A stretch of DNA of 64,000 nucleotides from the NCBI GenBank assembly GCA_963747105.1, contig CAVVEC010000002.1:219438-283437 (forward strand), given 5' to 3'. The translations under genes and the position numbers were made by a program. Numbering within the stretch: position 1 is the stretch's first letter; every line of letters starts with the position of its first letter. Below, piece by piece: positions 10,705-31,394 of this stretch. Source of the DNA: an uncultured Acidobacteriota bacterium. Lineage in GTDB: Bacteria; Acidobacteriota; Terriglobia; Terriglobales; Acidobacteriaceae. The notes under the pieces were generated by a model, which was given only the letters and a program-made list of their open reading frames with translations, was not told where the DNA came from and did not search any database.

Positions 10705-11764
10705 TTGCCGCCCCTCACTCCTCCTGGCGCGGAATATGCAGCGAACAGACGCACCGTCGGCAGACCGGATCTGTCTTGACATCCAGGTTTGCGCGAAAGC
10801 GCAACGCCTTGGGACTGTTCACAATCTCATGCAGCTTCTGGCTGTGAATACTTCCCAGCGCCGGGATGGAAGAAGCATGGGCGGACCTCGCCCGAGGCCT
10901 CGATCACCGCGGAAACCCAAGGCGCATTGCAGCGCGGAGCAACGTGCTGTGCCTGGCCGACGTGGGCGCGGAAATGGTGCGCAATGCGACGCAATTTGGC
11001 GGGCCTTTCCACCACAAATCCAAAATCCAAGTCGCAGCCGTGTTCCTGGATGAGCCGTTTGACTCTCCTCCAGTGCTTCGACCTCCTGTGCATTCAGGGC
11101 AACCCGGTCCTGGCGCTTGGATGACCGACCCTGCGGACGATTGAAAGCCTGGAGGTGAGGTCGGCCGCAAGGAACGAAATTGAGTTCAGACCAACTTCCT
11201 TCGCGGACTGAGCGGCGGCGCACAGTGAGTGATGGTTTGCCTTTTGAACAGTGCAGCGGGCGTGGAACGCCATGTCAGATCGGAACCTTCGCACCGCCAT
11301 CACCCCTGCCACCATTTGCTCAAAGGCGTTCGAAACGCGGCGGATGCGATTGTGCACGGCAGGTGGCCGTCAAGGAAGACGGTCACGTCGTTAATCGTCG
11401 CCGCAATGCTTTCAGCTTGCGATTCCAACAGCAATCCCGCGGTAAGAAGAGTGACACGAATTCCCCCGGCGCGAAGCATCTGCGCCAGGGTGAACAACTG
11501 GTTATTCAGCTGTGCTTCGCCGCCGGAGAAGACTACCCACCGAACTCCCAACTCGCGGAAGGAAGCCAACTGATGTTCGAGATCAGCGGGCGTGATTTCT
11601 TTCGGCTCGCGAATCCGCCAGATGTCGCACATCGCACAACGACAGTTACATTGGTTGTGCGGCGAAATAACCACGACCGGCATGGTACGGATCGTGTGCG
11701 CAGCCAGATCGCCAGTGTCATGCGCTGATTCGCTCGGGACCGAAATGGATACAAGGGAACTCAT
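10705..11764 (-). pseudogene. Radical SAM protein with SPASM/twitch-like C-terminal cysteine motif; about four frame changes
   Basis: The core reads MPVVVISPHNQCNCRCAMCDIW (CxxxCxxC), GVRWVVFSGGEAQL. Later segments lie in other frames: HNRIRRVSNAFEQMVAGVMAV..., QAFNRPQG...ALNAQEVEALEES, KRLIQEHGCDLDFGFVVE...RCNAPWVSAVIEASGEVRPCFFHP (C-x12-G-x4-C), and ALGSIHSQKLHEIVNSPKALRFRANLDVKTDPVCRRCVCSL-stop at 10705. Confidence 0.8.
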
Positions 11765-11866
11765 CAGCTTTGCACTTTAGCCCAGAGCAAGTAAAATTTT
11801 GCCGCTCGGCGCCGCGACAGGCGTGCCTTGACCGGCGCAGCGCCCAGCCGATCCCGTACCACGGCT

Positions 11867-12763
11867 TCAGAGTGGTCCACCGCAGTGATAATTTTCTTGC
11901 CACTCGTTCAATATTTCCGGTGTGAGATATTCACGGCTAGCAATGCTGTCGGAACGGAATCCGTACCGCTTTTGAAATGCCGCCCCCTTCTCTTCGAGCA
12001 TCGCCCGGCCACTCTCATCACGCGAATACAACGGAGAATCTGCGATGATCACATGGCCGGGGCGTCGCAAGCAGCGCAAAGCTTCACCGAGAGTCCCCGC
12101 GTAATCAACGGAGTAATGAAAGGAGGCGTTAAAGACGACCACATCAAACTGTTCTGCGGCAAACGGCAACCGATCCATTTCGGCTTGAAAGCGCGGGAAA
12201 GGCTCTGGGAGGTGCTGAAAATAGTGCTGGGCCGCGCCCAGACCGTCCGCATCATTATCCAGCAGGTCGACGGCGGCCGGCAGATGACCGCGGAGTGCCA
12301 GGCGATAACTCAACCACCCATTGCCGGCTCCGAGATCCAGCACGTCGCAGCCTCGAGGAAAAGTTCGCTCGATTTCAGGCAACACCTGTTTTTCCAAGTG
12401 ACGGAAAGTCCGACCGCGGATTCGCCACTGCCAACCGTTATTTCCTGTGAGGTCCCGAAAGGGAAGAGCCAAGTAGTAGTCCGCCGACGAAGAGCCCCGC
12501 CCCTCCTTGACCCGGACCGCTTCGTACTGCTCCACGAACTGCTGAAAATGGAGTTCGCGGCCCGGGGCTAAGGCGCGCAGGATTCCACCCATCTCGGAGA
12601 TCACGAACCCACATCCGGAACAAGCGTGGCGAGCAGAGGCGGAATGGAAAGCTGGAAAATCTTGACGGCAAGCCGGGCAACGGAGCCGTAGCGGCGTTTC
12701 CGCTCGGCGTGGCATCGTGATGATTTCCGCGGCAACCGCCGGTGATGCTGAGGCCCTGGTCAT
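11867..12763 (-). CDS. Class I SAM-dependent methyltransferase with N-terminal zinc-ribbon (CPAC...CSGC)
   Basis: LRCPACRQDFPAF...HACSGCGFVISEMGGILRAL is followed by the SAM motif VLDLGAGNGWLS and FDVVVFNASFHY. The start overlaps the stop of the upstream methyltransferase by 4 nt. Confidence 0.8.
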   Translation of the reverse strand: MTRASASPAVAAEIITMPRRAETPLRLRCPACRQDFPAFHSASARHACSGCGFVISEMGGILRALAPGRELHFQQFVEQYEAVRVKEGRGSSSADYYLALPFRDLTGNNGWQWRIRGRTFRHLEKQVLPEIERTFPRGCDVLDLGAGNGWLSYRLALRGHLPAAVDLLDNDADGLGAAQHYFQHLPEPFPRFQAEMDRLPFAAEQFDVVVFNASFHYSVDYAGTLGEALRCLRRPGHVIIADSPLYSRDESGRAMLEEKGAAFQKRYGFRSDSIASREYLTPEILNEWQENYHCGGPL

Positions 12764-13578
12764 ACAGCCTCACGCTCAAATCTCAACAGGATGTGATCGC
12801 CAAGCCCGCGAATACCCGGACAGAGACCAAGCATCGAATCCACGCGAACGCCTAACTGCAACACACCCGGGAATCGGCGAACCCACGGCTCGACGTAGCT
12901 CGGCGGCACCGCGACCCCAATTCCCTTGAAGGATTTGAGGCGAAACTCGGGAGCAAAAATGCGCTTGAGCCACCGTACGGGGGGGTAACGCACGTGCACG
13001 AGTGCCCCATCTGCGACTCGCGCGGTCACTCCTCCACGGCGCAGACGCCGGAGTGCCTTTCGTGGGTTTCCCTGCCCGAGGTACCAACCGACTTCCCACA
13101 GGCAGCAGGGACCCATCAGACACAGCAGCGCGGTCGCGCCGGGTCGGAGCAGCCTCCCCAAGTTTCTTGTCAATTTCCCGAGATCCGCAACACAATTGAG
13201 GGCGCCAAAGTTGGAGAACACGCCGTCAAAAGACCCACTGCTTTCCAGGCTGCCGATCTCCTCTGCAGCCAGCACGTGCGCCTGCACGAAGCTGTTCTTC
13301 ATGGCATTGCCAGCCCTGCGCGCCGTGACCTCAATCATTCGAGGTGAGCTATCGCAAGCCACCACCGTTACTCCCCGCTCGGCTAGGAAGCACGCGTCTA
13401 CGCCGGTACCGCAGCCAATTTCCAGCACGCGATCCCCGGGATGAAATGTCCTCTCCAGCTCTTTCCACACCGATGCACGCTGCGCCTGGCCAATCCGCGA
13501 TTCGGTGAAGATCTCGTCGTAGCGATCAGCGATGGCGTCGAATGGAGCCGAATAGACTTGTGGGTGCGCCAACGACAT
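12760..13578 (-). CDS. Class I SAM-dependent methyltransferase
   Basis: FDAIADRYDEIF...GDRVLEIGCGTGVDACFLAERGVTVVACDSSPRMI...FDGVFSNFGALNCV carries typical Methyltransf_11/25-type motifs. Confidence 0.85.
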   Translation of the reverse strand: MSLAHPQVYSAPFDAIADRYDEIFTESRIGQAQRASVWKELERTFHPGDRVLEIGCGTGVDACFLAERGVTVVACDSSPRMIEVTARRAGNAMKNSFVQAHVLAAEEIGSLESSGSFDGVFSNFGALNCVADLGKLTRNLGRLLRPGATALLCLMGPCCLWEVGWYLGQGNPRKALRRLRRGGVTARVADGALVHVRYPPVRWLKRIFAPEFRLKSFKGIGVAVPPSYVEPWVRRFPGVLQLGVRVDSMLGLCPGIRGLGDHILLRFEREAV

Positions 13579-13581
13579 TTT

Positions 13582-14995
13582 CTAGGCCTCAACCTCAACG
13601 GCACTTGCGCGTAGACCCGCGCGAGCATCCTTGATATCGCGTTGCAGAGATGCGATAGCGGAGACATCGGCATCCACGTTGTGTTGCAGCCTCTCGAGCT
13701 CCACCTCGCTGCGCAGCAACGCATCGGCGAACCCGTAGAATCGCCGCGAATGCCGGCCACGAATACGGGCTTCTCTATCGGAGCCGATGTCCCACGGTTT
13801 GAAGGTGTCAACCCGCTGCGCCACTTCTGAGAAGTAGGGCGTCCCTTTGATGGGATAAGCAACCGTGGTGAAGAAGATATCGGGATCGGTTTTTTTGACA
13901 TGCTCCACGGTGGCCTCGATATCGGAAAGTTCCTCACCTTCGTAGCCCCACATCAGAAACATTCCGATCTGAATTCCGTTCGAGCGGCACGTAGTTACCG
14001 AATTTTGCACTTGCTCTACGGTCACTCCCCGTTCCATGGCGTCCAGAATTCTTTGCGATCCGCTCTCAGACCCAATCCAAACACGGGAACAGCCTATCTC
14101 AGCCAGTGTTTCCGCAACTTGAGGGTTCAGCCGGTCGGCGCGCGAAATGCACTCAAAGGGAAACTTGATCTTGCGGCGCTTGAGTTCCGCAGCATACTGA
14201 AAGAGCCAACCATGGTGAATGGTGAATACGTCGTCGGCCATCCACGCCATTTCGGGCTGATAACGGTTGATCAACCATTCAAGTTCGTCGGCTACAGAGA
14301 CAGGCTTCCTGCGCCTATGGGTTTTCCCGAAGACATCGTGGCTGCACCAGCGGCAATGGTAAGGACAACCGCGGGCAGTGATGAGGGAAACAGAGCCCAT
14401 GCCGTGGTGCTCACGCCAAACCGCAACATACCGCGCCACATCGATGGATTCCCGGGCAGGCCACGGCTGCGCATCAATGTCCCTGATTTGCTCGCGCGGT
14501 TTTGTCCGGATCACCGATCCGTCCGGCCCGCGGAAGGCAATGCCGTCAATTTGCTGCAGTGTTTCGAAATGATTGCGACTTTAGCGCCGGCACCAATTCT
14601 TCCAGGGTAACTTCACCCTCGCCGATGACAACTACATCTGCTCCGGCTGCGAGGTACTCGTGAATATAGGCGCCCGGCTCCGGCCCACCGACAATCGTCT
14701 GCCAGCCCGCCTCCTTGGCGACGCGGAGAATTTCGACTGCATTGGGCCGTGTCATCAAATTCGCATACACGCCGACCACGGATGGCGGGCTTTGTCGGAG
14801 CAGGTCCCATAAGGCCTGACGCGACGAAAATGTTGAATCGAACACCTCGACATTCAGACCCTTCTTTCGCAAATGGGAGCAGATATAAAGGATTCCCAAC
14901 GGAGGGTAGGGCTTCATGATCTGGAGCTCCTTGGGATCCTCGTAAAGGAAATATCCGTGCGTGAGAAGAATATCCATAGTCCCGCGATTCCGCAT
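13582..14995 (-). CDS. B12-binding-domain radical SAM protein; single frame change near 14575
   Basis: The N-terminal fragment (14546-14995) reads MDILLTHGYFLYEDPKELQIMKPYPPLGILYICSHLRKKGLNVEVFD...VVIGEGEVTLEELV. The C-terminal fragment (13582-14514) contains ITARGCPYHCRWCSH and WIGSESGSQRILDAMERG. The junction sequence NHFETLQQIDGIAFRGPDGSVIRTKP is visible in the second frame. It is a paralog of the 15005-16519 product. Confidence 0.85.
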
Positions 14996-15004
14996 AGCGC
15001 GGAG

Positions 15005-16519
15005 CTAATCGTCACCGCTTGTCATGCCAGGGCCCGCGCGCAGCTGCACCAATGGCTCGCAGGCAAAACCAGGCAGAACTGTGGGACGCGCATTGCGGCA
15101 AGTCTTTTCCAGTCGTACCACCTGCTCCCACAGTTCATCCGGCTTGGGACGCCCTGGACTCGCGCCTTCTTGGCTAGTCGATGAATTCCAAAGATCCACT
15201 TGCGAATGCAGAGCGTCGTGCAAGGCATGATAAAACTCGTCGGTATAGGCGCCCTGAAACATCATTGCCAGATCCTCGCTGTCGGACCAATTAGTCTTTT
15301 CGCCCAACTGCGCATGCACCTGGTTGAAGAATTTGGTTCCAGGAAGAGGGTACGACACCGACACTCCAATGTCGTCCGGACGGGTATCGCGCACCAGTTG
15401 GGCGGTCTTCTGAATGTCCTCCCATGTCTCGCCCGGATATCCAAACTGCAAAAAATAACACGCCCGGATGCCCTGGCTCCGCAAGTTCTCCCTCGCCTTG
15501 GTGATCTGCTCGACCCGAGTGCCTTTGTCCATTGCATCCAGAATCTTTTGTGATCCCGACTCGGCACCCATCCAAACTTCCGCGCAACCTGCACGACGCA
15601 GGGCACCTACATTGTTGGCGGTCATCAGGTCCACCCGGGACTGCATCTTGAAGGGCACGGCAGCATCCGCCCTCTCGACTTCCGTGGCGAATTCGCGGAC
15701 CCAATTTGCGTGAAGCCCAAAGATGTCATCGGCAAACCAGAGATGCTCAGCGCCCAAATCGTACTTCAAACGGCGCATCTCTTCCGCCACACTCCAGGGC
15801 GACCGAACGGCAAACGAATCACCGTAAATGGGCTTGGCGCACCAGTTGCAACGAAACGGACAGCCGCGGCTGGAAACAATATTCATGGAAAAGTATCCGT
15901 GCGCAGCTTTCCAGGCGGCACGATATTCGTCGGCATCAATCAGGTCGCGAGCCGGGAATGGCAACAGATCAAGGTCTCGTATCAGAGGACGAGGGGCTGT
16001 CCGCATCAGTTCCCCGGTTTCCTCATCCAAGTACGACAATCCGGCAATAGCCGTGAATTGCCTGTCATCACCTTTCAAGAGCTGCCGAATCAATTCCAAC
16101 AATGTCCATTCCGCTTCCCCCAATAAGACGCAGCGGCAGCCCTTCCTTAGGTATTCGAGGGTGTGATCCGAAGCATCGGAGCCATTGACCAGGACTATTG
16201 CTCCTGCCCGCTGTGAGGATTCCAGAATGTGGTAGGCCACTTCTCGCATTCGGGTCAGGCACATCTTGGAAAGGAAGTTGAAGCTGTCCTCGTACACTAC
16301 TACGACACGTGGGCGATGCTGCTCAAGCGCAGCCTGGAATCCTTGCTCCGGATTGTTGAGCATGGTGTCAAAAACAGCGACCGAAATACCCACGCTTCGA
16401 AGGAGGGCTGCAGCATAAAGCGTACCGAGCGGCGGGTAAGGCTGCATCTTCCGCGTTTGCTTGCGGTCGTAATACACGTGATAGGAGTGAGTCAGCAGAA
16501 CGTCAGCCACGTTAGTCAT
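15005..16519 (-). CDS. B12-binding-domain radical SAM protein (class B-like)
   Basis: VLLTHSYHVYYDRKQTRKMQPYPPLGTLYAAALLRSVGISVAVFD is a Rossmann-like cobalamin-domain N-terminus. It also has VSSRGCPFRCNWCAK (CxxxCxxC), WMGAESGSQKILDAMDKG and an intact 504-aa ORF. Confidence 0.9.
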   Translation of the reverse strand: MTNVADVLLTHSYHVYYDRKQTRKMQPYPPLGTLYAAALLRSVGISVAVFDTMLNNPEQGFQAALEQHRPRVVVVYEDSFNFLSKMCLTRMREVAYHILESSQRAGAIVLVNGSDASDHTLEYLRKGCRCVLLGEAEWTLLELIRQLLKGDDRQFTAIAGLSYLDEETGELMRTAPRPLIRDLDLLPFPARDLIDADEYRAAWKAAHGYFSMNIVSSRGCPFRCNWCAKPIYGDSFAVRSPWSVAEEMRRLKYDLGAEHLWFADDIFGLHANWVREFATEVERADAAVPFKMQSRVDLMTANNVGALRRAGCAEVWMGAESGSQKILDAMDKGTRVEQITKARENLRSQGIRACYFLQFGYPGETWEDIQKTAQLVRDTRPDDIGVSVSYPLPGTKFFNQVHAQLGEKTNWSDSEDLAMMFQGAYTDEFYHALHDALHSQVDLWNSSTSQEGASPGRPKPDELWEQVVRLEKTCRNARPTVLPGFACEPLVQLRAGPGMTSGDD

Positions 16520-16759
16520 GCCTCGTCAAGCTTGGAACAGAAACCATCAGCAAACTTCGTGTGCGCGTTCGGCGAGGGCCCGGCACGACTTTGCGCTTCG
16601 CGGTCACTTTGCCTGCTGCACTACAAAAAAACTAGGAGCGCGCGACTCCCGCATCATTCTAAGTTGAGACAACGTCCTACGCGGCAGACCCCCACTCATT
16701 TTGCGCGCGCTGTTATGCAAAACGTATACCAGATTCTGGTGCTGACGTTCTAGACCAGT

Positions 16760-16787
16760 TGTCAACAGCTTGTCAAATTCCTGTCAA
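16760..16787 (-). promoter_or_regulatory. Three perfect TTGACA hexamers (plus strand TGTCAA) phased at exactly 11 bp, reading toward the minus-strand radical SAM operon (start 16519)
   Basis: TGTCAA lies at 16760, 16771 and 16782 in the 453-bp divergent intergenic region. Confidence 0.65.
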
Positions 16788-16832
16788 GTTTTGCTGTGCT
16801 GCCGCTCTTTGATGTTGGTCTGGTTTCGGAAT

Positions 16833-16860
16833 TTTACACAATGGTTACAATTCGGAGACA
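16833..16860 (+). promoter_or_regulatory. Three hexamers TTTACA/GTTACA/GAGACA phased at exactly 11 bp, reading toward the plus-strand radical SAM operon (start 16972)
   Basis: The hexamers lie at 16833, 16844 and 16855. The array mirrors the 16760-16787 array in the same intergenic region. Confidence 0.6.
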
Positions 16861-16971
16861 ATTCACCAATGTTGCCGCTGGTACTTTTCAGTTCTCGCGA
16901 CTAAAATCTGGCGATTGGGGATGCGTCGCCGTCTCGCAGTCTGAATTCTAGATCAGGATCGGGAGTATGAC

Positions 16972-18483
16972 ATGAGGTCATCGAAGAAAATCGTTTTTTT
17001 TGTCGCCTCATTTTCCAGTATCGAGGCTACCGCTCCCCTGGGTATCCTCGCCATTTCCACCCCGCTGTTACGTGCTGGCTATGATGTTCGCATCATCGAT
17101 TCCACGATTTTCCCTGACTACAAGAAGCGGGTGTTGTACGAAGTACAGGACGCTCTTTGCCTGGGCATTTCCGTTGTGACCGGACCCATGATCCGCGAGA
17201 CCGTGGAGGTAGCCAAAGCGGTCAAAAAATGGGATCCAGAGTTCCCCGTGATTCTTGGAGGCTGGCACCCGTCCCTTCTCCCCCAGCAAACCCTGGAAGC
17301 CGGCTACGTAGACATCATTGTTCGCGCCCAAGGCGAGGAGAGCATGCTCGAGGTTGCCGAGCGCCTTCGGGACGACGCCCCCCTAGACGACGTTCTCGGC
17401 ATCGGGTTCAAGCGTGACCGCAAGCTTCACCTCACTCCCGAACGTCCTCTCAAGACGCTCGATAAAATGCCTGCGAAGGCATATGAACTAGCCGATTTTG
17501 ATGGCTATGAGAAGGTGTGCGGCCGCCGCTGGGCGATGTATGTTTCCAGTCTGGCCTGCCCGTTCAATTGTTTCTACTGCACCAATGCCGGGGTCTACGG
17601 TCGCAAATGGAATGCACTGCCGGTCGAGCAAGTCGTGGAAGAGACCATGGAGTTGACACGGCGCTATAACCTCGAACTGCTCTGGATGGCCGACGACAAC
17701 TTTCTCGTGGATCTGAAACGCGCGCTGGAAATCGCGGAAGGACTCGTGCGTGCGAAGGCCACCTTTAAGTGGAGTGTCCAGGCCACCACGAACCTGACTG
17801 CCCGCCTTAGCATCGAGGAATTGTCGCTGCTCAAGAGATCGGGGCTGCACCAAATCTGTCAGGGGATCGAGACAGCGTCTCCCACTGTGATGAAATTAAT
17901 GAATAAGGACTTCCAGATCCTGGGGGACATTTATGAGTCTACTGAACGCTGCATCAAGGCGGGCGTCATCCCTTCTTTCAACATAATTTTTGGCTACCCC
18001 GGAGAAGGCGCGAAGGAACGGCGCGAAACCGTCAACTTCATGATGGACGTTTGCCGTCGTTTCCCGGGAGCTGAATTCTGGACCAACATCTTCACACCTT
18101 ACCCGGGTTCTCCTATTTTTCACCAGGCGGAAAAGCTCGGGATTGAGGTTCCCAACTCGCTCGAAGGCTGGGTGGATTATTTCCCGCGCTACACCGTGCT
18201 GCCCTGGCTGAAAGGCCGGGATCATCAGCGGGTACAAACTATGCGGGATTATCTCCGAATCGCCTTTGATCGGGCTCCCATCGCGTTGAAAGGCCCTGGC
18301 ACGCTGGCCAAAGCAGTTCAGCATTTGACCGCCTATCCGGCGCGCTGGAGATTGGATCACGACTTTTACAATTTTCCCGTCGAGCTGTGGTTGAACCGGA
18401 CATTGAAGAACATCGTCAAGCTTCCCAAGCCCAGCGTAGACGCCAAGATGATGGGACCGGAACAGGCTCCGAGTTGCACCTAA
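16972..18483 (+). CDS. B12-binding-domain radical SAM protein (second subfamily)
   Basis: IVFFVASFSSIEATAPLGILAISTPLLRAGYDVRIIDST, VSSLACPFNCFYCTN and QGIETASPTVMKLMNKD, in an intact 503-aa ORF with a GGGAG Shine-Dalgarno. Confidence 0.9.
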   Translation: MRSSKKIVFFVASFSSIEATAPLGILAISTPLLRAGYDVRIIDSTIFPDYKKRVLYEVQDALCLGISVVTGPMIRETVEVAKAVKKWDPEFPVILGGWHPSLLPQQTLEAGYVDIIVRAQGEESMLEVAERLRDDAPLDDVLGIGFKRDRKLHLTPERPLKTLDKMPAKAYELADFDGYEKVCGRRWAMYVSSLACPFNCFYCTNAGVYGRKWNALPVEQVVEETMELTRRYNLELLWMADDNFLVDLKRALEIAEGLVRAKATFKWSVQATTNLTARLSIEELSLLKRSGLHQICQGIETASPTVMKLMNKDFQILGDIYESTERCIKAGVIPSFNIIFGYPGEGAKERRETVNFMMDVCRRFPGAEFWTNIFTPYPGSPIFHQAEKLGIEVPNSLEGWVDYFPRYTVLPWLKGRDHQRVQTMRDYLRIAFDRAPIALKGPGTLAKAVQHLTAYPARWRLDHDFYNFPVELWLNRTLKNIVKLPKPSVDAKMMGPEQAPSCT

Positions 18484-18549
18484 GAACGGGATGCTCTGGA
18501 CTGATTTTTGGAGCCCGACAGCCCTACAGCCCCGGCTAGGCCTAGATGC

Positions 18550-20014: not shown

Positions 20015-20769
20015 TCTCGTCCCGAAGCGTCGGCGCAGGTTTGCCGGAGGCCCTCGGACAAGAGCCGATTGCGGCTTCGCGGGAAGCGGCACTGGTTGAC
20101 CCCAGGGAAGGTTACGAGCGTTGGGCCGCGAGCTACGATCAATTCCCCAATCCTCTTCTCGCTCGCGAAGAGCGTTATCTCATGCCTTTGCTTCCCGACC
20201 TGACTGGAAACGTCGTTCTCGACCTCGCCTGCGGCACCGGGCGATGGCTGCAAAAGCTTCTGGAACGCGGGGCCCGTTTGGGAATTGGAGTCGACTACTC
20301 AACCGCCATGTTGCGAGTCGCCAGCCTCAAAGTCGCAATCCCATGCCAGCTGGCGAGAGCCGATTGCCTTAGACTTCCGTTTCGCGCTTCGGTCTTCGAT
20401 CTTGCCGTCTGCTCATTCGCCCTGAGCCACGTCCAAGACTTGAGGCAAATGGCGCGCGAGTTAGCGCATGTGATGAAGCCGGATGCGGTGGTTTTCATCA
20501 GCGATCTTCATCCGGAGGCCTACGCCCGAGGATGGCGCACCGGTTTTCGTGATGGTCGCGGCGCTTGCCAAATCGAGGCGCAGACCCCGTCGGCTGAAGA
20601 AGTTGTCCGAGCGTTCGATTCAGGCGGGTTCGAGTGCCTGGCACGCGCCCCACTATGCATCGGTGACCCAGAAGAGGTGATCTTCACCGAAGCCGGCAAG
20701 GCCCACTTGTTTGTGGAAGCAGTTCAGCTACCGGCAGTGCTGGTCTGCCACTTCAGGCGCCGGCCGTGA
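20011..20769 (+). CDS. Class I SAM-dependent methyltransferase
   Basis: The GTG start overlaps the upstream stop (GTGA) and is preceded by AAGGAGGAG. Motifs are VVLDLACGTGRWLQKLLERGARLGIGVDYSTAML and FDLAVCSFALSHV. Confidence 0.8.
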   Translation: MISSRSVGAGLPEALGQEPIAASREAALVDPREGYERWAASYDQFPNPLLAREERYLMPLLPDLTGNVVLDLACGTGRWLQKLLERGARLGIGVDYSTAMLRVASLKVAIPCQLARADCLRLPFRASVFDLAVCSFALSHVQDLRQMARELAHVMKPDAVVFISDLHPEAYARGWRTGFRDGRGACQIEAQTPSAEEVVRAFDSGGFECLARAPLCIGDPEEVIFTEAGKAHLFVEAVQLPAVLVCHFRRRP

Positions 20770-24006: not shown

Positions 24007-24027
24007 TGCTCCAACTTACCGCCGGGT

Positions 24028-25302
24028 TTACCCGCACCGCCCTGGTTGTAAAACAAGCGGCGGCTGGGGCGGCTGGGTAAAATCGAAGCTGTCCAGCATG
24101 TTGCTCGCCGCTGAATCTCGGGGGGTTAGCGGCGGCAGACCGTAGCGCGTCTCTACGAACTTCAAGATCGACGAATGTTCGTAGATGGTATGCGAAATGT
24201 ACCCCGGTTTCGAATAGGGAGAAATGATCAATAGCGGTACGCGAGGGCCCAGTCCGAATTGGTCGATTTGTGGCGGTGGAACGTGGTCATAGAGTCCCCC
24301 GAAGTCGTCCCAAGTAATGAAGACTACAGTGGAATTCCAAGCCGGTCCCTGCATGACCGCGTTTAGAACCTGAACTGTCCAATTCTGACCGTCGCAGGGA
24401 CTTTCCGGAGGATGCTCATCGTCGGCTTCGGGTGCGAAAAGCCAGTTCATCGCTGCCAGCTTTCCATTTTCAGCATCGGTGACAAATTGTGTACCCGGTG
24501 CGAAATTCTTCGTCCACGCAGGGCCATTGCGGATATGTTTGATCGTGCTGAATGTGTTGGGCCCATCACCGTAATATTTCCAACCAATGCCTGCCTGCCC
24601 GAGACTGTCGGCCAAAGTCTTAAAGTCGAAGCAGGGCGACTGAATAGTTCGGTTGCCCTTAGAATCGATCACCGTCACAACTTCTGCCGGACTCCCGTCA
24701 CAAGCCACGCCGGACCCAAAGTGCGAACCATCGTCGATCACGCCGCCAGATTGGGCGGCAATAATATAAAAGTAGTTCGGAAGACTTGGTCCGTGGACCG
24801 ACGTGAAGTATCGATCAGCCAGAACGAAGCGATGTGCATAAGCCCAGTAGCTGGGAATGTCTTGCTCGTCCAGTTGGGTATATGCGTTCAAGGTTCCAGC
24901 ATCAATGAGGTCAAACTTGTTCATTCCCCCCCCATCCATAGCCTCGATGGCGCAATCCCAACCATTGCAAAGGTTGTCGAGTTGAGACGGATTGCCCAGG
25001 TGAGTAAGCGGTACGACTTGCCCAGTTGAGACTTTGCCAGTGGTCGCACCGTCCGCGCCAGGGAACGTACCGAAGTAATGGTCGAAGGTACGATTCTCTT
25101 TCACAACGAAGACCACATGCTGGACAACCCGAAGATCCCTTGGTCCCTGATTGCATGCCCCGACTGTAGCCATAAGAGTGCTCAGCCCCAGGGACATGGC
25201 CACTCTCTTCTTCCACTCCGTCGCTTGCCTCATCCTTCTTAACCACCTTATTGAGGTCGCAGACCCAAAACCTGATGCGAGCCGATTGTTGTCGTAGATC
25301 AA
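24028..25302 (-). CDS. Phosphoesterase-family protein (non-haemolytic phospholipase C / AcpA acid phosphatase family), probable lipoprotein
   Basis: [23 protein letters not shown] is the hallmark N-terminal motif of this family. The likely start is [27 protein letters not shown] (lipobox-like) at about 25233. Confidence 0.8.
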
Positions 25303-25367: not shown

Positions 25368-26957
25368 TCACGAGTTGTTTCGTTCCCAGATCTGATCCCC
25401 ATTGGAGAACACTTCGGCTACATGGTAATGCGCATGCAAGTAACTGCGCATAGGACCGAGATGATCGCCCGCAGGATGGAGGACAGCCTCGGCCTCATGG
25501 TCCAAGCCGCTGTACCAACTCACGAATCGCACCTGGTGCTTTTCTAACGCTTGCACCGCATCTTGCACCTCTTCTGGCCTGGTGTAGTCGGTGGGTCGAA
25601 GGAAGGGCACGCGACCAACATTCTGCAGCCGAAGCGTGAAGGCGATAAGATGGTCGCCGAAGAAATAATCGGAAGGCCGGGTTCGCGCGGAGACCCATTT
25701 ACACTTCTCGTACAGTACCGGTTCGAAAAAAGCTGTCCGACCGGTGGGAAGACTTAAAATGGCCTTCCAGCGTGTCTGCGTGACGATTGGCCTCGCGATG
25801 GCTAACGCCAGAGCGGTTGCCCAAGCCGTGCGCAACAGAATTTTCTCAGTCTTGAATGCAGGCTTCAGAAACCAAACCAGCAGAACCAGCGCGGGCAGCG
25901 AGGCTACGTACAACCTGCTGTACGCCGGCGCCAGCGCCACGCTGCTAAGCAAAGACAGTCCCGTGATGTTGACGAGCATTAGCCGATCCCATGGTTCGTC
26001 TGGCCGCCGCCGCTCGCGCCACCAACGCACAAAGAACAGGATGTAAATCAATGGGATGAGCGCGTGAATAAAGCAAAATGCCGTCAAGTCTGGCCAGTTC
26101 GTCCAAGAATGAATCAACGGCCGCCCTGTCATATAGACTCTAAAGTTATTGAAATAGTCTGCAGGGTAATACTTGGTGACAAATACCATCGTGAAGTACA
26201 GAAATCGTTTTATACCCACCTTCCAAATAAAATAGGAGTTGAATGCCACGATCGGAGAAAGAAAACCGGCGAATAGGAAAGCCTCCTTCTTCAGCAGAAC
26301 GCTCCATTCTTCCTCGCAGCTATATCTCTCCCATACCAGGTACAGAGCTAAGCCTAGGGCTCCCGCCGCGATCGACTGGGTAAAACACACCCCCACTCCC
26401 CAGAAGAATCCAGCCCAGAGCAGGTTCGTCTCGGTTCTCTTTTCCATCACGAGGGCAAGAGCAGCCGTTCCCGCCAGAGTGCTGAACCAGTGGTGCGTGG
26501 CGTCCAGATAGCTTGAGAAAGGCAGGGCAAGAAAAAGGAAAGCGGGCAACAATGCCGCAGGACCTGTTAGCACCTTCTTCGAGATCCCAATGCAGAGCCA
26601 AGCGGTGAGCACCCCGATCAGGACCAATATGGCCTGAGGAACCCAAGCTCGGACACCAAACAGCCTGAAAAGTGCCGCGTAAAGGACGTCTGTACCAGGG
26701 GTCGTAAAATGATCGTAATCGCGGTAAATCAGTTGACCTTCATACATTCGTGCGGCGTGATGCAGATAGATGCCCTGGTCACCAGCTGCGACGTGTGGTA
26801 TGTCGGGAAGAATAAACACCTGCAGATACAGAAAAGCGCCGCATGACAGCAGGGCGAGTGGCACGAGCCACTTTCGGCGTAAGAACATAGTTGAAGGGAC
26901 CGCTGAAACCTCATGGTCAGCGGGTCGGGCAGGTTGTTTATGCAGTAACACTTGCAT
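25368..26957 (-). CDS. Polytopic membrane protein, GT-C-like (ArnT/PMT-related) with soluble C-terminal domain
   Basis: It has about 12 hydrophobic helices and an early periplasmic loop AAGDQGIYLHHAARMYEG. Its C-terminal domain is shared with the 21985-24006 product. Confidence 0.6.
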   Translation of the reverse strand: MQVLLHKQPARPADHEVSAVPSTMFLRRKWLVPLALLSCGAFLYLQVFILPDIPHVAAGDQGIYLHHAARMYEGQLIYRDYDHFTTPGTDVLYAALFRLFGVRAWVPQAILVLIGVLTAWLCIGISKKVLTGPAALLPAFLFLALPFSSYLDATHHWFSTLAGTAALALVMEKRTETNLLWAGFFWGVGVCFTQSIAAGALGLALYLVWERYSCEEEWSVLLKKEAFLFAGFLSPIVAFNSYFIWKVGIKRFLYFTMVFVTKYYPADYFNNFRVYMTGRPLIHSWTNWPDLTAFCFIHALIPLIYILFFVRWWRERRRPDEPWDRLMLVNITGLSLLSSVALAPAYSRLYVASLPALVLLVWFLKPAFKTEKILLRTAWATALALAIARPIVTQTRWKAILSLPTGRTAFFEPVLYEKCKWVSARTRPSDYFFGDHLIAFTLRLQNVGRVPFLRPTDYTRPEEVQDAVQALEKHQVRFVSWYSGLDHEAEAVLHPAGDHLGPMRSYLHAHYHVAEVFSNGDQIWERNNS

Positions 26958-26976: not shown

Positions 26977-29199
26977 CTAGCGAGAAACGCTCAGTTTCGA
27001 TAGAGCAGTTATTCCGAGTCCTCGGCCACAGTCTGTCGCGTAAATGAGATCGTTCGAATTTGGCATCCACACCGGGCTGACAGAATTGCACTCGCTAGCC
27101 GTAAGCTGGAGCCGTTCTCCGGTACGAACGTCCATAGTGTAGAGCTGCCAGTCGCCGTCCTGTTCACAGCTGAAAGCCAACCGCCGCCCATCCGGCGAGA
27201 TTGCAGGGTAACGCGCCGAACAACTCACGGCTGTCAGATCCGCGATTGTTCCGGTTTCAGGATCCACCGTATAGAGTTCGAACTTTCCCGCCCGCAGAGA
27301 ACTGAAAACCATTCGATGATCTGGGTAAAATGCGGCTTCCCGCACATCATATTGCTCCCCCACAAGTTGATGCTCTGCGCTGGGTTCGTCCCCAATTTCA
27401 GCTCTCCCGATCCGGCGCATCCACAAACTACCTCGGCCTTGTACCTCACGGATGTATGCCAACAACTTTCCATCATACGAAACCACCGGTTGTTCGGCAT
27501 TATCGGCCTCGACGGTGAGGCGGTCGCCAACGGTGATCGGGCCCTCAGACTCGAAGCGAACGATGTGTGAACTTTTTCCGGTGGCCACCTCCGCCCAGGT
27601 AACACCGTCCTTCGTCGCAGTGGGGTGGAACCAATCGCCGCCAGCTCCATACGAGGTGATCGAATCTCCCTTCAGCTTGTGAACTTCATAAGTGTCACGG
27701 GACGAAGCACTGAATCGCGGAACCAGCGCAGTGAAGAATAAACTATCCGAGCTGACCGCCGGATCTGTCGCAATTGCTGAGCCGGAAATCGTTGCCACTC
27801 GGCTGGCGTAATTGTCGAATTGCCCGTTTAAGTGTCGCAGGTTCGAAGTTAGGCCAACGGCGGTCAACGTCACAAGCGCCAATGCAGATGGCAAAGAAGA
27901 TCGGGACCTTAATCGAGTGCCGAAAGATTCTTTTGAACCCGAAGTCAGAATCCATAGCAATCCCCCGCCAAGCAGGACCATCAGGGATAGGCGGGGGAAG
28001 AAAAGCAGACTTTGCCATCCGCTTGGATGCATCCTGTACAGGCGGTCATAGGGCACACAAATGACCGCGTAAAGGGCTGTGACGACGCCCGCCGCGGCTG
28101 CTTGCTTACGTGCAACCAGGTAATCAATCACCAAAACTGCTGATAGGATCAGGGCCACAAAGTGGAAGGAGAGAGGCAGTGGAGAAACCAGCAACAACAA
28201 GAACAGATAGCTTGCCCATTCCAGCTTTCTTCTGCCCGGGTCCGTCTTCTGGGAAGTAATTGCCCACAGGAAAGCAATGAAAATAAAGCCGTGCATCCCA
28301 GCCTGAAGCAGGGCGTACAGGGTGGGCAGGTGTGCTACCGGAGCCGGATTTAGCTCCGGTTCCTCAATGAATAGCCGATGAAGGAGAGCGTTCAGCGAAT
28401 CCCATTCGATGGTGTAGGGATCGATGATCTCCCCTCGGAGACCCCAGGGGAGAACCTCTCTCAAGTATGTGCGACACGCATCCGCACCGAAAAGGTAAAC
28501 GGAAAGCACCAAGGCGCCAACTGTCCCAAGTGCAAGGCCGCAAGCGGCGCGCCACTGCTTTCTGACCACGAAGTAAACCAGAAACAGAGCAGGATATATC
28601 TTTATCACCGCGGCGCTCGCAAGCGCGATGCCGGACCAGAGATGCCAATCCCTGAAATACAACCAAGCTGCGAGAGCAAGCAGAAACAATATGACCAGGT
28701 GCACTTGCCCCAAAAGAAAGTTGCTGCGGAGAGGACCGACAGCGAGGAACATCAGCACTCCAATGCGTCGCCAGGCCAGCCGCGTGCTCAGTTTCAGAAG
28801 AACAGCAGTCATCGGCAGGAATACCAAACTCACAAGCAACCAACAGCGCTTTGCCTGTAATGGCGAAAGCGAACACAAAGGCACAACAAGCAGCGCCGAA
28901 GTTGGCGTCGAAGGTATGAAGCCAACGAGAGGTTGATCGATTCGTGCGTGATCTTTCTGGCGTTGAAACCATATCCAATCGTATACGCGCTCGACCGGAT
29001 ATCCTTCTCGATAGAGGCGTGCAACTAAATAGTAATTGGAGAAATCCGAGTCCAAGTGAATCCAAGCAGGAATGAATCCTTTTGCAGCGAACAAAAGGAC
29101 CAAGACTGCCAGCAATGCTCTCTCGGCCCATACTCCCCGAGCAAAGTGGCGGCGCGACCCGGAAGCCGCCGGTGCGATCAGAGCGCCCGATACCTGCAT
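26977..29199 (-). CDS. Fusion of a DUF2029/GT87-like polytopic membrane transferase with a C-terminal TolB/PD40-type beta-propeller
   Basis: The N-terminal ~450 aa are multi-TM (DSDFSNYYLVARLY..., AAVIKIYPALFLVYFVV). The C-terminal ~280 aa carry PD40-like repeats (VVSYDGKLLAYIRE, AAFYPDHRMVFSS, YPAISPDGRRLAFSCEQDGDWQLY, SPVWMPNSNDLIYA). Confidence 0.7.
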   Translation of the reverse strand: MQVSGALIAPAASGSRRHFARGVWAERALLAVLVLLFAAKGFIPAWIHLDSDFSNYYLVARLYREGYPVERVYDWIWFQRQKDHARIDQPLVGFIPSTPTSALLVVPLCSLSPLQAKRCWLLVSLVFLPMTAVLLKLSTRLAWRRIGVLMFLAVGPLRSNFLLGQVHLVILFLLALAAWLYFRDWHLWSGIALASAAVIKIYPALFLVYFVVRKQWRAACGLALGTVGALVLSVYLFGADACRTYLREVLPWGLRGEIIDPYTIEWDSLNALLHRLFIEEPELNPAPVAHLPTLYALLQAGMHGFIFIAFLWAITSQKTDPGRRKLEWASYLFLLLLVSPLPLSFHFVALILSAVLVIDYLVARKQAAAAGVVTALYAVICVPYDRLYRMHPSGWQSLLFFPRLSLMVLLGGGLLWILTSGSKESFGTRLRSRSSLPSALALVTLTAVGLTSNLRHLNGQFDNYASRVATISGSAIATDPAVSSDSLFFTALVPRFSASSRDTYEVHKLKGDSITSYGAGGDWFHPTATKDGVTWAEVATGKSSHIVRFESEGPITVGDRLTVEADNAEQPVVSYDGKLLAYIREVQGRGSLWMRRIGRAEIGDEPSAEHQLVGEQYDVREAAFYPDHRMVFSSLRAGKFELYTVDPETGTIADLTAVSCSARYPAISPDGRRLAFSCEQDGDWQLYTMDVRTGERLQLTASECNSVSPVWMPNSNDLIYATDCGRGLGITALSKLSVSR

Positions 29200-29284: not shown

Positions 29285-30358
29285 TTATCGGCGAGTCTGG
29301 AGCGTCTCATGACGCGCTAACAAATCGCCAAAGAATATAGCAGCGACCGCAGGGTCACTGCCATAGGCCAGATGATAAGCAGGTAACTCCACAAGCGAAC
29401 CGAGGGCACTTGCGCGTTGGGCGTTGAATTTGTCGTCATCTTTGAACGGAAGATTCTCAAAGAGTCGTCGGGACAAGTCGGCGCGAGAAACGGAAGAGAG
29501 GCGCGGCTGGGGCGCCGAATTCCTTTCGAGAAAAAGACAGCAGACCGGCACAACAGGGCGGGCCTGTTGAGGCTGAAACCTACGCTTGCTCAAGTAATAG
29601 AAAGTCAAATCACAGTAGGACAATGGACCAGCTGAAGTTTGAAGCTCCGGAAGAAACTGAAGGGTCTGAGGGCGGAAGGCCGCCGGGAAGAAGTCGCCCC
29701 ACGCGCTTACACCGGCGCTTCCCACTTCCAGAAAGATCGCCTGGTCTGCGTGGAAGTCGAGTCCGACTTTTGCCGCCAGATAACTGGCCGTGGTCTTGCC
29801 ACTATCGGGGGGGCCCATCACAAGGAGACCCTTTTGGCCCAACGCGACACAGGTAGCGGTCAGCGAAACCAATCCGAGACTTCCCGCCGTCAGATAAAAG
29901 ATGGTGTCGATAAAAGGGCAGGTCAGCCCATGCTGATCCTCTGCTAACCCCTCGGCCAGGTAACCAATCGCTTCGCGAGCCTCTAAATCGACGGCCAGAA
30001 AGTTGCTCTGCCCGAACTGGACAAGTCGCAAACCTGGATCTGAAAAGGCGGATCTCTTTGGCCACGGAGGACTCATCTGCGGGCCCGGCTGGACCAGGAT
30101 TCGCCAAAGGAATTGCGCGCGGCCACCAGGCGATCCAGGATAAGGCGCGAATAATTCCACGGCATGCTCCAGAACCCTTTCATCATTGGTTTCCAGTCGT
30201 ATGGTGCGGCCCATTACCGGCAACATGGCACTGTGCGGAGTCGGCGTGAAACGACGCAGAGGATCATGGCGCTTTGTCTCGACCCCGATCTCCCGCGAGA
30301 CAGGCTGATCCTCATGCCGAGGCTCATTCGGTTGTATCGTGCCGGGAATGCTTCCCAT
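29285..30358 (-). CDS. HPr-kinase C-terminal-domain-like P-loop protein (degenerate Walker A GPPDSGKT); start uncertain (ORF open to 30496)
   Basis: SLGLVSLTATCVALGQKGLLVMGPPDSGKTTASYLAAKVGLDFHADQAIFLE resembles HprK-related kinases. MLPVMGRTIRLETNDERVLEHAVELF parallels the N-terminus of the upstream paralog. Confidence 0.65.
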   Translation of the reverse strand: MGSIPGTIQPNEPRHEDQPVSREIGVETKRHDPLRRFTPTPHSAMLPVMGRTIRLETNDERVLEHAVELFAPYPGSPGGRAQFLWRILVQPGPQMSPPWPKRSAFSDPGLRLVQFGQSNFLAVDLEAREAIGYLAEGLAEDQHGLTCPFIDTIFYLTAGSLGLVSLTATCVALGQKGLLVMGPPDSGKTTASYLAAKVGLDFHADQAIFLEVGSAGVSAWGDFFPAAFRPQTLQFLPELQTSAGPLSYCDLTFYYLSKRRFQPQQARPVVPVCCLFLERNSAPQPRLSSVSRADLSRRLFENLPFKDDDKFNAQRASALGSLVELPAYHLAYGSDPAVAAIFFGDLLARHETLQTRR

Positions 30359-30389
30359 GTTGTTTCGGCCCGCAATCACACGCTTCACA

Positions 30390-31394
30390 TCACGACGGAC
30401 ATTCCAACCGATCAAAATAATGCGACAGTTGTTCGGCGATGATCTGCGGCGCTCCGCCGTACTCGAGACGCCAGCAGGGGAGTCCGGCGAGTTCATCGAT
30501 CGTCCTTGCCTGCTCCGCGGCTGCTTCGGGAAGCTCTGCCATCATGTCTGCCTCAAGCCGACGAGCGGCTTCGCTTCTCGGCACATGGTTGAGGCAGAAG
30601 CCACGAGCCTTCCGCTGATCGAGAAAAACAACCAATCGGGGCTCGCACTCGCGAACCCGTTGAACACCAAACTGCAGGTCCGCTTCGTATCGAAAAACGG
30701 ATTCGCCCTTCCACATGTCGGTCGGCGACTGCTGCCGGAGCTCTTGAAACCATGTCGCGGCGTCAGACCGCAGTTTGAGCAACAAGGGCAGTCCCCACGC
30801 GACCAGCTTACCTTGGCGCAGTGAGCAAAAAGTACGGTCGTCCGAAAGAAATCCAAAGCCGACTTGGCCGAGGGCCAAGGACAGGGTTGATTTTCCCGAG
30901 CCTGACGGTCCCGCCAAGAGGAGACCACCTTGATTTCTGGCCACGCAGGCGCAGTGTATCTCCGCGATGCCGAGAGAGCCGCTAACAATGGAGACAATCA
31001 TGGGCAGGATGACTTCCCTCCAATAGGCACGATCCCCACTGATTTGCGGTGAAAATCGACCGATAACACGCCGAGTACGAAGATCGATGAGCGCTGAACT
31101 ATCAGCCTCAAAACCGGCAAAGACAAGATGGTCCAAGCCCCGAACATAGGGCTTTGGCCTCGGCGCCTGGCCGGCGGCGCTTGCGTCTACCCACAACCTA
31201 ATGCGCAGTTCGGTCGGAATTCCCGGACCTTCGTTCCGAACAAAACTCTCACGGGCCGCCGCGAGAATGGATTCGGAATTGGTGCTGATTTCGCACCCTC
31301 TACCGCCCACAAGAAACAATTCATGAAGCGGCGTCTGCGCCTCCTTGCGCAAGAAGTCGCCAGAACAGGTCCCGGGACTGGCAGTTCTGCTCAA
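30390..31394 (-). CDS. HPr-kinase C-terminal-domain-like P-loop protein (HprK-related kinase)
   Basis: SLGIAEIHCACVARNQGGLLLAGPSGSGKSTLSLALGQVGFGFLSDDRTF shows the H-x-(A/S)-x-V...G-x-SG-x-GKST...SDD arrangement typical of the HprK catalytic domain. It has a TTG start. Confidence 0.7.
   Translation of the reverse strand: MSRTASPGTCSGDFLRKEAQTPLHELFLVGGRGCEISTNSESILAAARESFVRNEGPGIPTELRIRLWVDASAAGQAPRPKPYVRGLDHLVFAGFEADSSALIDLRTRRVIGRFSPQISGDRAYWREVILPMIVSIVSGSLGIAEIHCACVARNQGGLLLAGPSGSGKSTLSLALGQVGFGFLSDDRTFCSLRQGKLVAWGLPLLLKLRSDAATWFQELRQQSPTDMWKGESVFRYEADLQFGVQRVRECEPRLVVFLDQRKARGFCLNHVPRSEAARRLEADMMAELPEAAAEQARTIDELAGLPCWRLEYGGAPQIIAEQLSHYFDRLECPS

Follow-up and report, generated by a model that had tools for sequence, protein, structure and literature searches.

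The window analyzed here, 64,000 nucleotides (nt) of the forward strand of contig CAVVEC010000002.1 (positions 219,438-283,437; assembly GCA_963747105.1) from an uncultured acidobacterium, contains a block of approximately 22 kb in which radical S-adenosylmethionine (rSAM) enzymes are combined with methyltransferases, kinase-like proteins, a nucleotidyltransferase and membrane glycosyltransferases. We favor, with moderate confidence, the reading that this block is one co-regulated pathway which makes, exports and attaches an rSAM-tailored unit of a cell-envelope glycan or glycoconjugate. A first-pass annotation had described three packed gene groups, running from 16519 downwards, from 16972 upwards and from 31394 down to 21985 (all coordinates are window positions unless a locus is named), and its inventory of domains was borne out by Pfam and NCBIfam profile searches of the block proteins, for which the curated cut-offs served as yardstick. 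It had left the choice between a peptide that is made by ribosomes and modified after translation (RiPP) and a lipid or glycan open; the comparative data now favor a carrier-linked glycan, on account of an exporter gene within the rSAM operon, decorating accessory genes, and neighboring UpxY and Wza or Wzz genes.

The gene set is shared among Terriglobia

A genome scan was carried out on one genome per species with the 503-amino acid (aa) rSAM of the block as query; 435 genomes contained a relative, and the best 80 were taken as loci, amounting to 1.52 Mb of related DNA, in which genes were recovered by tblastn and by clustering of open reading frames (ORFs), with counts limited by the 10-kb flanks around the anchor gene. 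All of these best 80 are metagenome-assembled genomes (MAGs) of Terriglobia, including Sulfotelmatobacter, Acidiferrales and Acidobacteriaceae, and their proteins are 79-96% identical to the query. Protein databases hold thousands of relatives of the same enzyme, of which the 120 best likewise share 79-96% identity, with the named members among them being Terriglobales MAGs. Among the best 80 of 435 genomes and the protein matches listed, every named carrier is an uncultured member of the Terriglobia from peat or soil, and the system has for this reason so far been overlooked. Exact-sequence look-ups of window proteins gave no match for three of them, whereas an identical copy of the NTP_transf_5 protein is encoded on an independent Logan contig; such a contig (L084) reproduces positions 20152-24932 at 99.96% identity with zero gaps.

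The recurring set comprises five B12-binding rSAMs (B12-rSAMs), one SPASM rSAM, two methyltransferases, an NTP_transf_5 protein, a pair of HprK-like proteins (A and B) and a GT87-PD40 glycosyltransferase. The 503-aa B12-rSAM (B12c) was recovered in 78 loci, followed by B12_487 and the methyltransferase behind it (68 each), B12_493 (64), the 504-aa B12a and B12_464 (60 each), NTP_transf_5 (50), HprK-like A (46), HprK-like B and GT87-PD40, the latter in two types (44 each), the second methyltransferase (39) and the SPASM rSAM (36). Gene order and orientation vary by lineage: B12c relocates, the HprK pair inverts, and NTP_transf_5 lies either 3' of the methyltransferase or beside the HprK pair. 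Because the same set stays linked in nearly all of the 80 Terriglobia genomes despite this shuffling, the block is not a group of chance neighbors, as had been conceivable when it was first described. The annotation's proposal that the genes work together is likewise upheld by this synteny, together with two shared array elements and a fusion of HprK-like A and B in four loci.

When the window was compared to its closest relative (L004), two clean whole-gene differences were apparent; B12_493 is missing, with a deletion junction at 16570/16583, and a zinc-ribbon methyltransferase gene is extra. Five B12-rSAMs are typical of the loci, and the window has lost one. Median identities, measured against window or reference proteins, are 85, 84, 84, 79 and 73% for the five B12-rSAMs and 64% for the SPASM enzyme, whereas the nucleotidyltransferase, the HprK-like proteins and GT87 reach 45-53%. 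The very high conservation of the rSAMs beside variable transferases suggests an invariant core moiety that would be attached in a lineage-specific manner.

The same difference in identity could be taken to mean that two or more unrelated pathways adjoin here, for instance a small-molecule or tetrapyrrole-like cofactor pathway of rSAMs beside an ordinary envelope-glycosylation operon. BchE, AhbC/AhbD/NirJ and BchM/CpaM-like models do occur among the best generic matches, and a few loci (L075, L078) show, within the sequence available, B12c, B12_487 and a methyltransferase only. We regard this as highly improbable, as the two halves remain linked through many rearrangements; NTP_transf_5 and the exporters lie inside the rSAM operon, and one subclade has a single mixed operon; the HprK-like gene fusion argues for one unit; the same promoter array stands 5' of both halves; and no tetrapyrrole genes are nearby.

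Exporters and accessories are of glycan type

In 20 loci a Wzx gene lies within the rSAM operon, 3' of NTP_transf_5. Four loci of another subclade instead carry, at the equivalent position, an ABC-2 permease and an ABC ATPase, the pairing found in exporters of the Wzm/Wzt and TagG/TagH type, and in this subclade the genes form one long operon of the order rSAM, rSAM, methyltransferase, ABC-2, ATPase, nucleotidyltransferase and HprK fusion. This alternation of two lipid-linked-glycan exporter types at one position of the rSAM operon is, in our view, the strongest single argument that the substrate may be a carrier-linked carbohydrate.

Accessory genes that recur in the loci encode a PEMT/ICMT-like membrane methyltransferase (26 loci), FkbM (15), GDSL/SGNH (8), a NodU-like carbamoyltransferase (6), Acyl_transf_3 (5), glycosyltransferase family 2 (GT2) proteins (2) and a sulfotransferase (2), alongside further PMT_2 proteins. 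Moreover, in about 12 loci the HprK-like gene directly adjoins, in divergent orientation, a UpxY gene with Wza or Wzz behind it. In the window, a UpxY-led locus begins 8.5 kb from the block and extends over 39.9-63 kb as a classical polysaccharide locus, with UpxY, Wza, PAP2-Wzi, Wzz/GNVR, Wzy, Wzx, GT4 glycosyltransferases, epimerases or dehydratases and two Bac_transf initiating transferases. Its first part (39899-46625, plus strand) starts with the UpxY-family antiterminator (39899-40468; NF033644, 122.8 bits against a cut-off of 100). The Wza homolog (Poly_export/SLBB; 40592-44137) is unusually long at 1181 aa, of which about 400 form a low-complexity extension at the N-terminus, and has multiple SLBB domains (six SLBB matches); the Wzi protein (44154-46625) carries a PAP2 phosphatase domain fused at its N-terminus.

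A two-part control element is shared by the block

The divergent region between the two rSAM operons (16520-16971; 452 nt) contains, at 16749-16861, three copies of TTGTCAA at 11-bp phase, followed some 45 nt on by GTTACAA-N4-GAGACAA, a layout that is kept in relatives. Across the window and the 80 loci, the element consists of TGTCA(A) three times at 11-bp phase and, about 45-60 nt downstream, TTGCAGAAT-TTGACAA-N4-GAGACAA. The triple pattern was matched 12 times in the window, where shuffling predicts 1.17, and 160 triple arrays (up to 2 mismatches) were counted in the related loci, compared with 2 in shuffled sequence; 143 of the 160 are intergenic. Downstream of the intergenic arrays, the genes with a start no more than 400 nt away are B12_493 (62), B12c (38), B12_487 (38), HprK-like A (37) and UpxY (11). 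The sharing of arrays supports co-regulation of the block, which in some genomes may extend to the capsule-export operon.

Phased-hexamer arrays had been reported for all three operons. They are indeed present in the divergent region of 16.5-17.0 kb, but none lies immediately upstream of the gene at 31394. Two flanking genes are also preceded by array sequences: a phased TGTCA-N6 triple array with a downstream TTGACAA-N4-GTGACAA (10061-10179, plus strand), in the same two-part layout as in the divergent region, precedes a small secreted-protein gene, and part of the layout, TTTACAA-N4-GGAGACA...TTGACA (32772-32799, minus strand), lies 5' of a TIGR03118 family gene (31621-32691, minus strand; 245 bits against a cut-off of 80) which is itself followed, in the same orientation, by the first HprK-like gene and adjoins it in 4 relatives. 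Since the array element is found there and not directly 5' of 31394, the third operon probably starts one gene earlier, with the TIGR03118 gene at 32691.

A TGGTAC element is conserved downstream of the arrays in many loci; an interpretation of it, made by eye, as a sigma-54 promoter was abandoned, as its GG-GC spacing departs from the consensus. A search of the window against Rfam for riboswitch or RNA control gave just two matches, neither of which lies within the block: an Acido-Lenti-1 RNA and a tRNA. The former, a small RNA, lies at 592-637 (plus strand; 56.6 bits), and the tRNA gene at 34478-34563 (minus strand), between the island and the capsule locus. A LuxR-type response regulator (38398-39066) is encoded close by in the window, as it also is in three relatives.

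The rSAM enzymes and methyltransferases

Four of the rSAM genes each encode a B12-binding domain (PF02310) and a Radical_SAM domain with CxxxCxxC, which assigns them to class B, and the four clusters quoted in the first-pass annotation were recovered exactly. CPFRCNWC belongs to the 504-aa B12a (15005-16519, minus strand), CPYHCRWC to a gene with a 464-aa ortholog (13582-14995, minus strand), CPFNCFYC to the 503-aa B12c (16972-18483, plus strand), which is the island's most conserved gene (79-96% identity in 79 loci), and CPFRCNFC to a gene with a 487-aa ortholog (18550-20014, plus strand). The fifth rSAM (10715-11764, minus strand; ortholog 348 aa) carries the C-x12-G-x4-C and CRRCVC tail that had been described, as well as CNCRCAMC, although in the window copy these motifs are spread over three reading frames. 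Its intact ortholog matched Radical_SAM at 66.7 bits and SPASM (PF13186) at 51.1 bits and is thus of the SPASM/twitch class. Three class I methyltransferases were found, as expected: an accessory enzyme with an N-terminal CPAC...CSGC zinc ribbon (11867-12763, minus strand), which about 11 relatives share and the closest one lacks; a core enzyme (12760-13578, minus strand) with a median identity of 60% in 39 loci; and a UbiE/MenG-like enzyme (19894-20769, plus strand), the actual start of which is probably near 20011-20053.

When compared with the NCBIfam equivalogs for named B12-rSAMs (HpnJ, BchE, ApyD, HpnR, PhpK, ladderane B12-rSAM and AprD4), no rSAM of the block reached a cut-off; the best scores, to HpnJ, BchE, ApyD, ladderane-lipid rSAM and PhpK-type models, were 85-129 bits against cut-offs of 360-750. 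As every score is far under its cut-off, a named function for these enzymes was dropped. HpnJ is the top NCBIfam match for two of the paralogs, and the nearest solved structures to the 503-aa rSAM are TokK, AprD4, OxsB and CysS, of which AprD4 is an aminoglycoside enzyme. For the SPASM ortholog, the nearest solved structure is BlsE, a cytosylglucuronate (sugar-acid) decarboxylase, and its NCBIfam ranking is led by PTO1314, a tungsten-cofactor maturase, AhbC/AhbD, BlsE and NirJ, with ScmE as the best peptide-type match. So far as their functions are known, these leading matches act on small molecules. The block thereby resembles sugar-remodeling rSAMs (AprD4, GenK/GenD1, BlsE, HpnJ), with the differences that its scores are 4- to 10-fold under the family cut-offs and that each of those enzymes works alone, in an antibiotic or hopanoid pathway, whereas the island has a five-paralog set in an envelope locus.

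An HprK/PEPCK-fold pair and an NTP_transf_5 enzyme

The two P-loop proteins that had been described as resembling the HprK catalytic domain are encoded at 30390-31394 (A) and 29285-30496 (B; actual start probably downstream of 30496), both on the minus strand, and are paralogs of each other (28% identity, E 1e-31). The description held for a P-loop pair, the first member of which has a model with the fold of phosphoenolpyruvate carboxykinase (PEPCK) and HprK; profile support for the first is weak, however, and the second is degenerate. The first protein gave a weak match to Hpr_kinase_C, and its scores to the HprK-related kinase families, 46.7 bits to TIGR04352 and 38.8 bits to TIGR04355, against cut-offs of 200, place it outside both; the second protein matched neither. 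An AlphaFold2 (AF2) model of the first, built on an alignment of 48 sequences with a mean confidence (pLDDT) of 88, was aligned by Foldseek to PEPCKs, which act on small molecules, over both domains (E 8e-9) and to HprK/P over the P-loop domain (E 3e-7), so that at the level of fold, with an intact Walker A motif (GPSGSGKST) and acidic residues, the modeled protein belongs to the HprK/PEPCK group. G162, GKST167-170 and DDR185-187 are invariant among its 48 homologs. The second paralog retains GPPDSGKT, with ADQ where the first has DDR.

In four loci, L035 (at 16804-18891 of that locus), L015, L053 and L059, A and B are encoded as a single fusion protein of some 700 aa, which suggests that the pair may act as a catalytic/non-catalytic heterodimer. 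One subclade (L030, L041, L046, L050, L061, L068 and L083; locus positions of about 1100-3300) has a third, divergent HprK-like gene directly beside the SPASM gene; its product, about 378 aa long, shares 28-33% identity with the window protein and reaches 42.6 bits to TIGR04352, and an FkbM methyltransferase gene is often alongside.

The NTP_transf_5 protein (20836-22137, plus strand) was identified as annotated, at 123.6 bits to PF14907 over 248 of 249 profile positions (gathering threshold 31.2). Its AF2 model (pLDDT 78) has a nucleotidyltransferase (NTase) core of the pol-beta type, and Foldseek returned weak matches (E 5e-4 to 5e-2) to MenT1, LnuA, ANT(2'') and FKRP, a CDP-ribitol phosphotransferase.

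The kinase-like pair is one reason to consider a RiPP-like or protein-modifying system, in which a peptide or protein would be C-methylated or cross-linked by the rSAMs and phosphorylated on serine by the HprK-like pair, NTP_transf_5 would extend the phosphate and the membrane transferases would glycosylate the product after export. The best family matches of the first HprK-like protein are HprK-related kinase A, HprK-related kinase B and ScmC, families that are defined beside SPASM maturases. Lasso-peptide clusters pair HprK-like kinases with nucleotidyltransferases, the leading generic matches of the rSAMs include ApyD and RiPP C-methyltransferase models, a sulfotransferase occurs in 2 loci, and the PMT family includes protein O-mannosyltransferases. 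Closest to the island are paeninodin and pseudomycoidin (PsmK/PsmN), whose clusters likewise combine an HprK-type P-loop protein with an uncharacterized nucleotidyltransferase; PsmN is likened to NTP_transf_5 by role. PsmN is required to add hexoses onto phospho-serine (PMC11912497), and so the building of a sugar-on-phosphate by a kinase and a nucleotidyltransferase has a precedent. A SPASM rSAM is present in the island as well.

Despite these likenesses we consider a peptide substrate unlikely. The lack of a lasso cyclase, leader protease, PqqD or RiPP recognition element (RRE) and convincing precursor, stated already in the first-pass annotation, was confirmed, as the block proteins contain no such domains, and a clustering of the ORFs of 25-130 aa that lie in the unassigned DNA of 77 loci gave no conserved small ORF in the core or next to it, precursors encoded far away or unlinked being beyond the scope of this comparison. 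By the ORF map of the window, the 452-nt control region is the only intergenic stretch that could hold a precursor or RRE gene. No peptide-type ABC-peptidase exporter was seen in the block; the exporters are Wzx or ABC-2, which are glycan types, and the scores to TIGR04352 and TIGR04355 are far below cut-off. Several candidate precursors were rejected: recurrent clusters of small ORFs were translations of the promoter array or antisense shadows of the PEMT gene, the tandem "unk230" matches were a frameshifted GloVer-repeat protein, and the 121-aa secreted protein was found in 3 loci only. This Cys-containing protein (10237-10602, plus strand), which has no NCBIfam match, shares the array at 10061-10179 and adjoins the SPASM gene in these 3 of 80 loci by tblastn; it is an accessory and not part of the core.

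Membrane glycosyltransferases and the case for a lipid

Three polytopic membrane proteins had been likened to glycosyltransferases of the GT-C type, a type to which GT87 and PMT_2 domains belong (8-9 hydrophobic segments here). The assignment is solid for two of them. The GT87 glycosyltransferase (26977-29199, minus strand), a core protein, has 9 hydrophobic segments, a score of 115.5 bits to PF09594 (cut-off 25) and a C-terminal PD40/TolB-like propeller; it scored 26.7 bits to the PimE-type equivalog NF009915 (cut-off 413). The second is a 673-aa PMT_2/PMT protein (21985-24006, minus strand). In the third, a 529-aa protein with 8 hydrophobic segments (25368-26957, minus strand), the PMT_2 match is below threshold; this gene is a frequent accessory (15 loci). 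The annotated PLC/AcpA-family phosphoesterase lipoprotein (24028-25302, minus strand) was recovered, with 241 bits to PF04185 and a plausible lipobox (...TVGAC), and is neither a phosphocholine-specific phospholipase C (PLC) nor a Burkholderia-type acid phosphatase by the NCBIfam models (TIGR03396, 179 bits against 580; TIGR03397, 144 against 363). Its inclusion in the system did not stand, and neither did that of the 673-aa PMT protein: both are rare accessories, found in 1 and 2 relatives, respectively, among the 80 loci.

Such enzymes would also be at home in a suite for membrane lipids, in which the rSAMs methylate, cyclize or bridge the alkyl chains of iso-diabolic acid, glycerol dialkyl glycerol tetraethers of the branched kind (brGDGTs) or hopanoids, and the kinase, NTase, GT-C enzymes, flippase and PEMT build and move a head group. 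The modifiers of archaeal GDGTs are a SPASM/twitch rSAM (Gms) and B12-rSAMs (Gmm, GrsA/B) (PMC11214058), a combination that the island matches at the level of enzyme class. Acidobacteria have no Mss homologs, and their pathway had not been identified (PMC13159169) and was still open in a further report (PMC13274423). Leading generic matches include HpnJ, HpnR and the ladderane-lipid B12-rSAM, a PEMT/ICMT-like gene occurs in 26 loci beside the PLC-type phosphoesterase of the window, GT87 is the family of the glycolipid enzyme PimE, and the carriers are uncultured Terriglobia of peat and soil.

We nevertheless hold a lipid suite to be quite unlikely. Neither a homolog of Tes or Mss nor an enzyme of ether formation was found in or beside the block, the sole Tes match being 19.7 bits (cut-off 450) on the SPASM fragment, and a large non-B12 rSAM is absent from all 80 loci. 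The recurrent accessories are of carbohydrate type (NodU-like, FkbM, Acyl_transf_3, GDSL, Wzx, ABC-2, UpxY, Wza, Wzz), and the surrounding genes are of glycan type. Among the relatives that carry names, none is from a cultured acidobacterium such as those studied for their lipids, which is weak evidence, as names are sparse. A composite version, in which the rSAM half is the acidobacterial machinery for methylating, cyclizing and bridging membrane-spanning lipids and the other half builds a large glycan head group, appears very improbable because of the carbohydrate-type accessories and the lack of Tes/Mss nearby.

Frameshifts most likely stem from the assembly

When ortholog proteins were aligned to the window, three of the five rSAM genes, the 464-aa type, the 487-aa type and the SPASM gene, were not intact. 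The ortholog of the B12-rSAM at 13582-14995 aligns in two frames with a break near 14570 (14570-14577), that of the B12-rSAM at 18550-20014 in two frames with one extra base at about 18836-18840, and that of the SPASM gene in three frames, with shifts at about 11324-11360 and 10848-10864. The pieces are 78-95% identical to the orthologs, and the correct frames are free of stops. These sites lie outside the span covered by the independent contig L084. Outside the block, the housekeeping genes nuoD (707-1851) and ribBA (5374-6595) are split as well, and a GloVer-repeat gene (33260-34443) is likewise frameshifted. Among the related loci, 11 of 36 from Microflora Danica long-read MAGs contained splits (23 in total), as opposed to 1 of 44 from other assemblies; the window's closest relative among the best 80 of 435 genomes (96% identity) is itself a Microflora Danica long-read MAG. 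Since nuoD and ribBA are split too, and the splits of relatives are nearly confined to nanopore-derived MAGs, the rSAM frameshifts are most likely indel errors of long-read assembly and not gene decay. Genuine pseudogenes were set aside as the preferred reading on the same two observations together with the stop-free, conserved frames.

Other genes flanking the block

Between the island and the capsule locus, a gene at 34752-36341 (minus strand) encodes a 529-aa protein with a polytopic N-terminal part and C-terminal TPR repeats; it resembles TMTC/PMT-TPR glycosyltransferases and is a possible extra GT-C enzyme. Beyond the block's opposite end, a response-regulator receiver is fused to a TIGR02266 (PilZ-type) domain (7494-8696, plus strand). 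It is adjoined by a gene for an unannotated 402-aa protein (8662-9870), which recurs by the island in several relatives, where its cluster representative matches cytochrome c and DUF5777.

A proposed pathway and its relation to known systems

The class of pathway is reasonably supported, and the individual steps that follow are inference. In the cytoplasm, four to five B12-rSAMs, one SPASM/twitch rSAM and two to three methyltransferases would act on a unit, either a sugar or a polyol, that is bound to a carrier (nucleotide or polyprenyl phosphate) and remodel it by chemistry that could be C-methylation, rearrangement or decarboxylation. The PEPCK/HprK-fold pair, one member catalytic and the other degenerate, would phosphorylate a hydroxyl, and the NTase-fold NTP_transf_5 enzyme would then activate that phosphate or convert it to a phosphodiester. 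A Wzx or ABC-2 exporter would carry the carrier-linked product across the inner membrane, where GT87-PD40, in some genomes along with extra PMT_2-type GT-C enzymes, may transfer it to an acceptor in the periplasm or at the surface. Lineage-specific extras would be acyl, carbamoyl, methyl and sulfo groups.

Several observations speak against an envelope glycan. The chemistry of the rSAMs is unassigned, because their family matches are far below the equivalog cut-offs, and the structural matches of the modeled NTase are weak. An initiating phosphoglycosyl transferase is not in the core set, with GT2 in just 2 loci. The HprK-related relatives that sit with SPASM enzymes (TIGR04352, TIGR04355 and ScmC matches) lie in peptide-modification contexts, and the PEMT/ICMT-like gene and the PLC-type enzyme would fit a lipid substrate too. 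Lastly, the capsule locus of the window is separated from the block by 8.5 kb, with a tRNA and unrelated genes between.

Full-text literature searches gave no description of the block, in agreement with the earlier statement that no characterized pathway matches it; they returned PF14907 once, in an unrelated phosphonate context, and no paper joining B12-rSAMs with capsule or O-antigen loci. The Wzx/Wzy and ABC-2 capsule and O-antigen loci with UpxY, for example those of Bacteroides, are alike in having Wzx or ABC-2 in the operon, in the adjoining UpxY, Wza, Wzi, Wzz, Wzy and Bac_transf genes, and in the O-acyl, carbamoyl and methyl tailoring genes that the island carries as variable accessories. 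They differ in that the island core lacks an initiating transferase and a cytoplasmic set of glycosyltransferases, with GT-C in place of GT-A/GT-B enzymes. We know of no capsule or O-antigen locus with five B12-rSAMs and a SPASM enzyme.

GT-C transfer of a modified sugar from a polyprenyl-phosphate carrier is established for ArnT, which places 4-amino-4-deoxy-L-arabinose (L-Ara4N) on lipid A, for PimE (GT87), and for the mycobacterial Emb and Aft enzymes. The island resembles these pathways in its polytopic GT87 and PMT_2 enzymes, in the implied order of cytoplasmic tailoring, flipping and periplasmic transfer, and in the periplasmic phosphoesterase of the window; it is unlike them in the fusion of GT87 to PD40, in its rSAM tailoring, and in that the polyprenyl-phosphate sugar synthase (GT2) is not core. 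A further comparison can be drawn with phospho-substituent pathways of surface glycans, namely LicA/LicC/LicD for phosphocholine, CDP-ribitol/FKRP, and the O-methyl phosphoramidate (MeOPN) of Campylobacter. These share with the island a kinase, an NTase-fold enzyme and SAM methyltransferases in a capsule context, and FKRP is among the Foldseek matches of NTP_transf_5, although that match is weak (E ~0.03-0.07); in contrast, the island kinase has a PEPCK/HprK fold and is not of the choline- or glutamine-kinase type, and no rSAM is involved in those pathways.

Significance

All components of the island are of known superfamilies and its overall logic is that of envelope-glycan tailoring; the rSAM complement is, as far as we know, new for such a pathway. 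To our knowledge, five B12-dependent rSAMs are not known from any envelope-glycan pathway, and none was found in the literature searched. The presence of the island in the 80 closest of 435 genomes, along with median rSAM identities of 73-85% across lineages, points to a strongly selected, chemically demanding and undescribed modification. That all known carriers are uncultured limits what can be concluded.

Even under the less likely reading, the island is a testable candidate for how Acidobacteria modify membrane-spanning lipids; were the rSAM half such lipid machinery, it would yield the penta- and hexamethylated, ring-bearing and H-shaped brGDGTs that are used as palaeoclimate proxies. Terriglobia are among the most abundant bacteria of acidic soils and peat, and the polymers of their envelopes influence soil aggregation, tolerance of desiccation and the storage of carbon. 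If the envelope-glycan reading is true, the island would extend the known radical chemistry on carbohydrates and would provide a defined target, consisting of a gene set, a promoter element and a candidate regulator, for metatranscriptomic and glycan-chemistry work on uncultured Acidobacteria.

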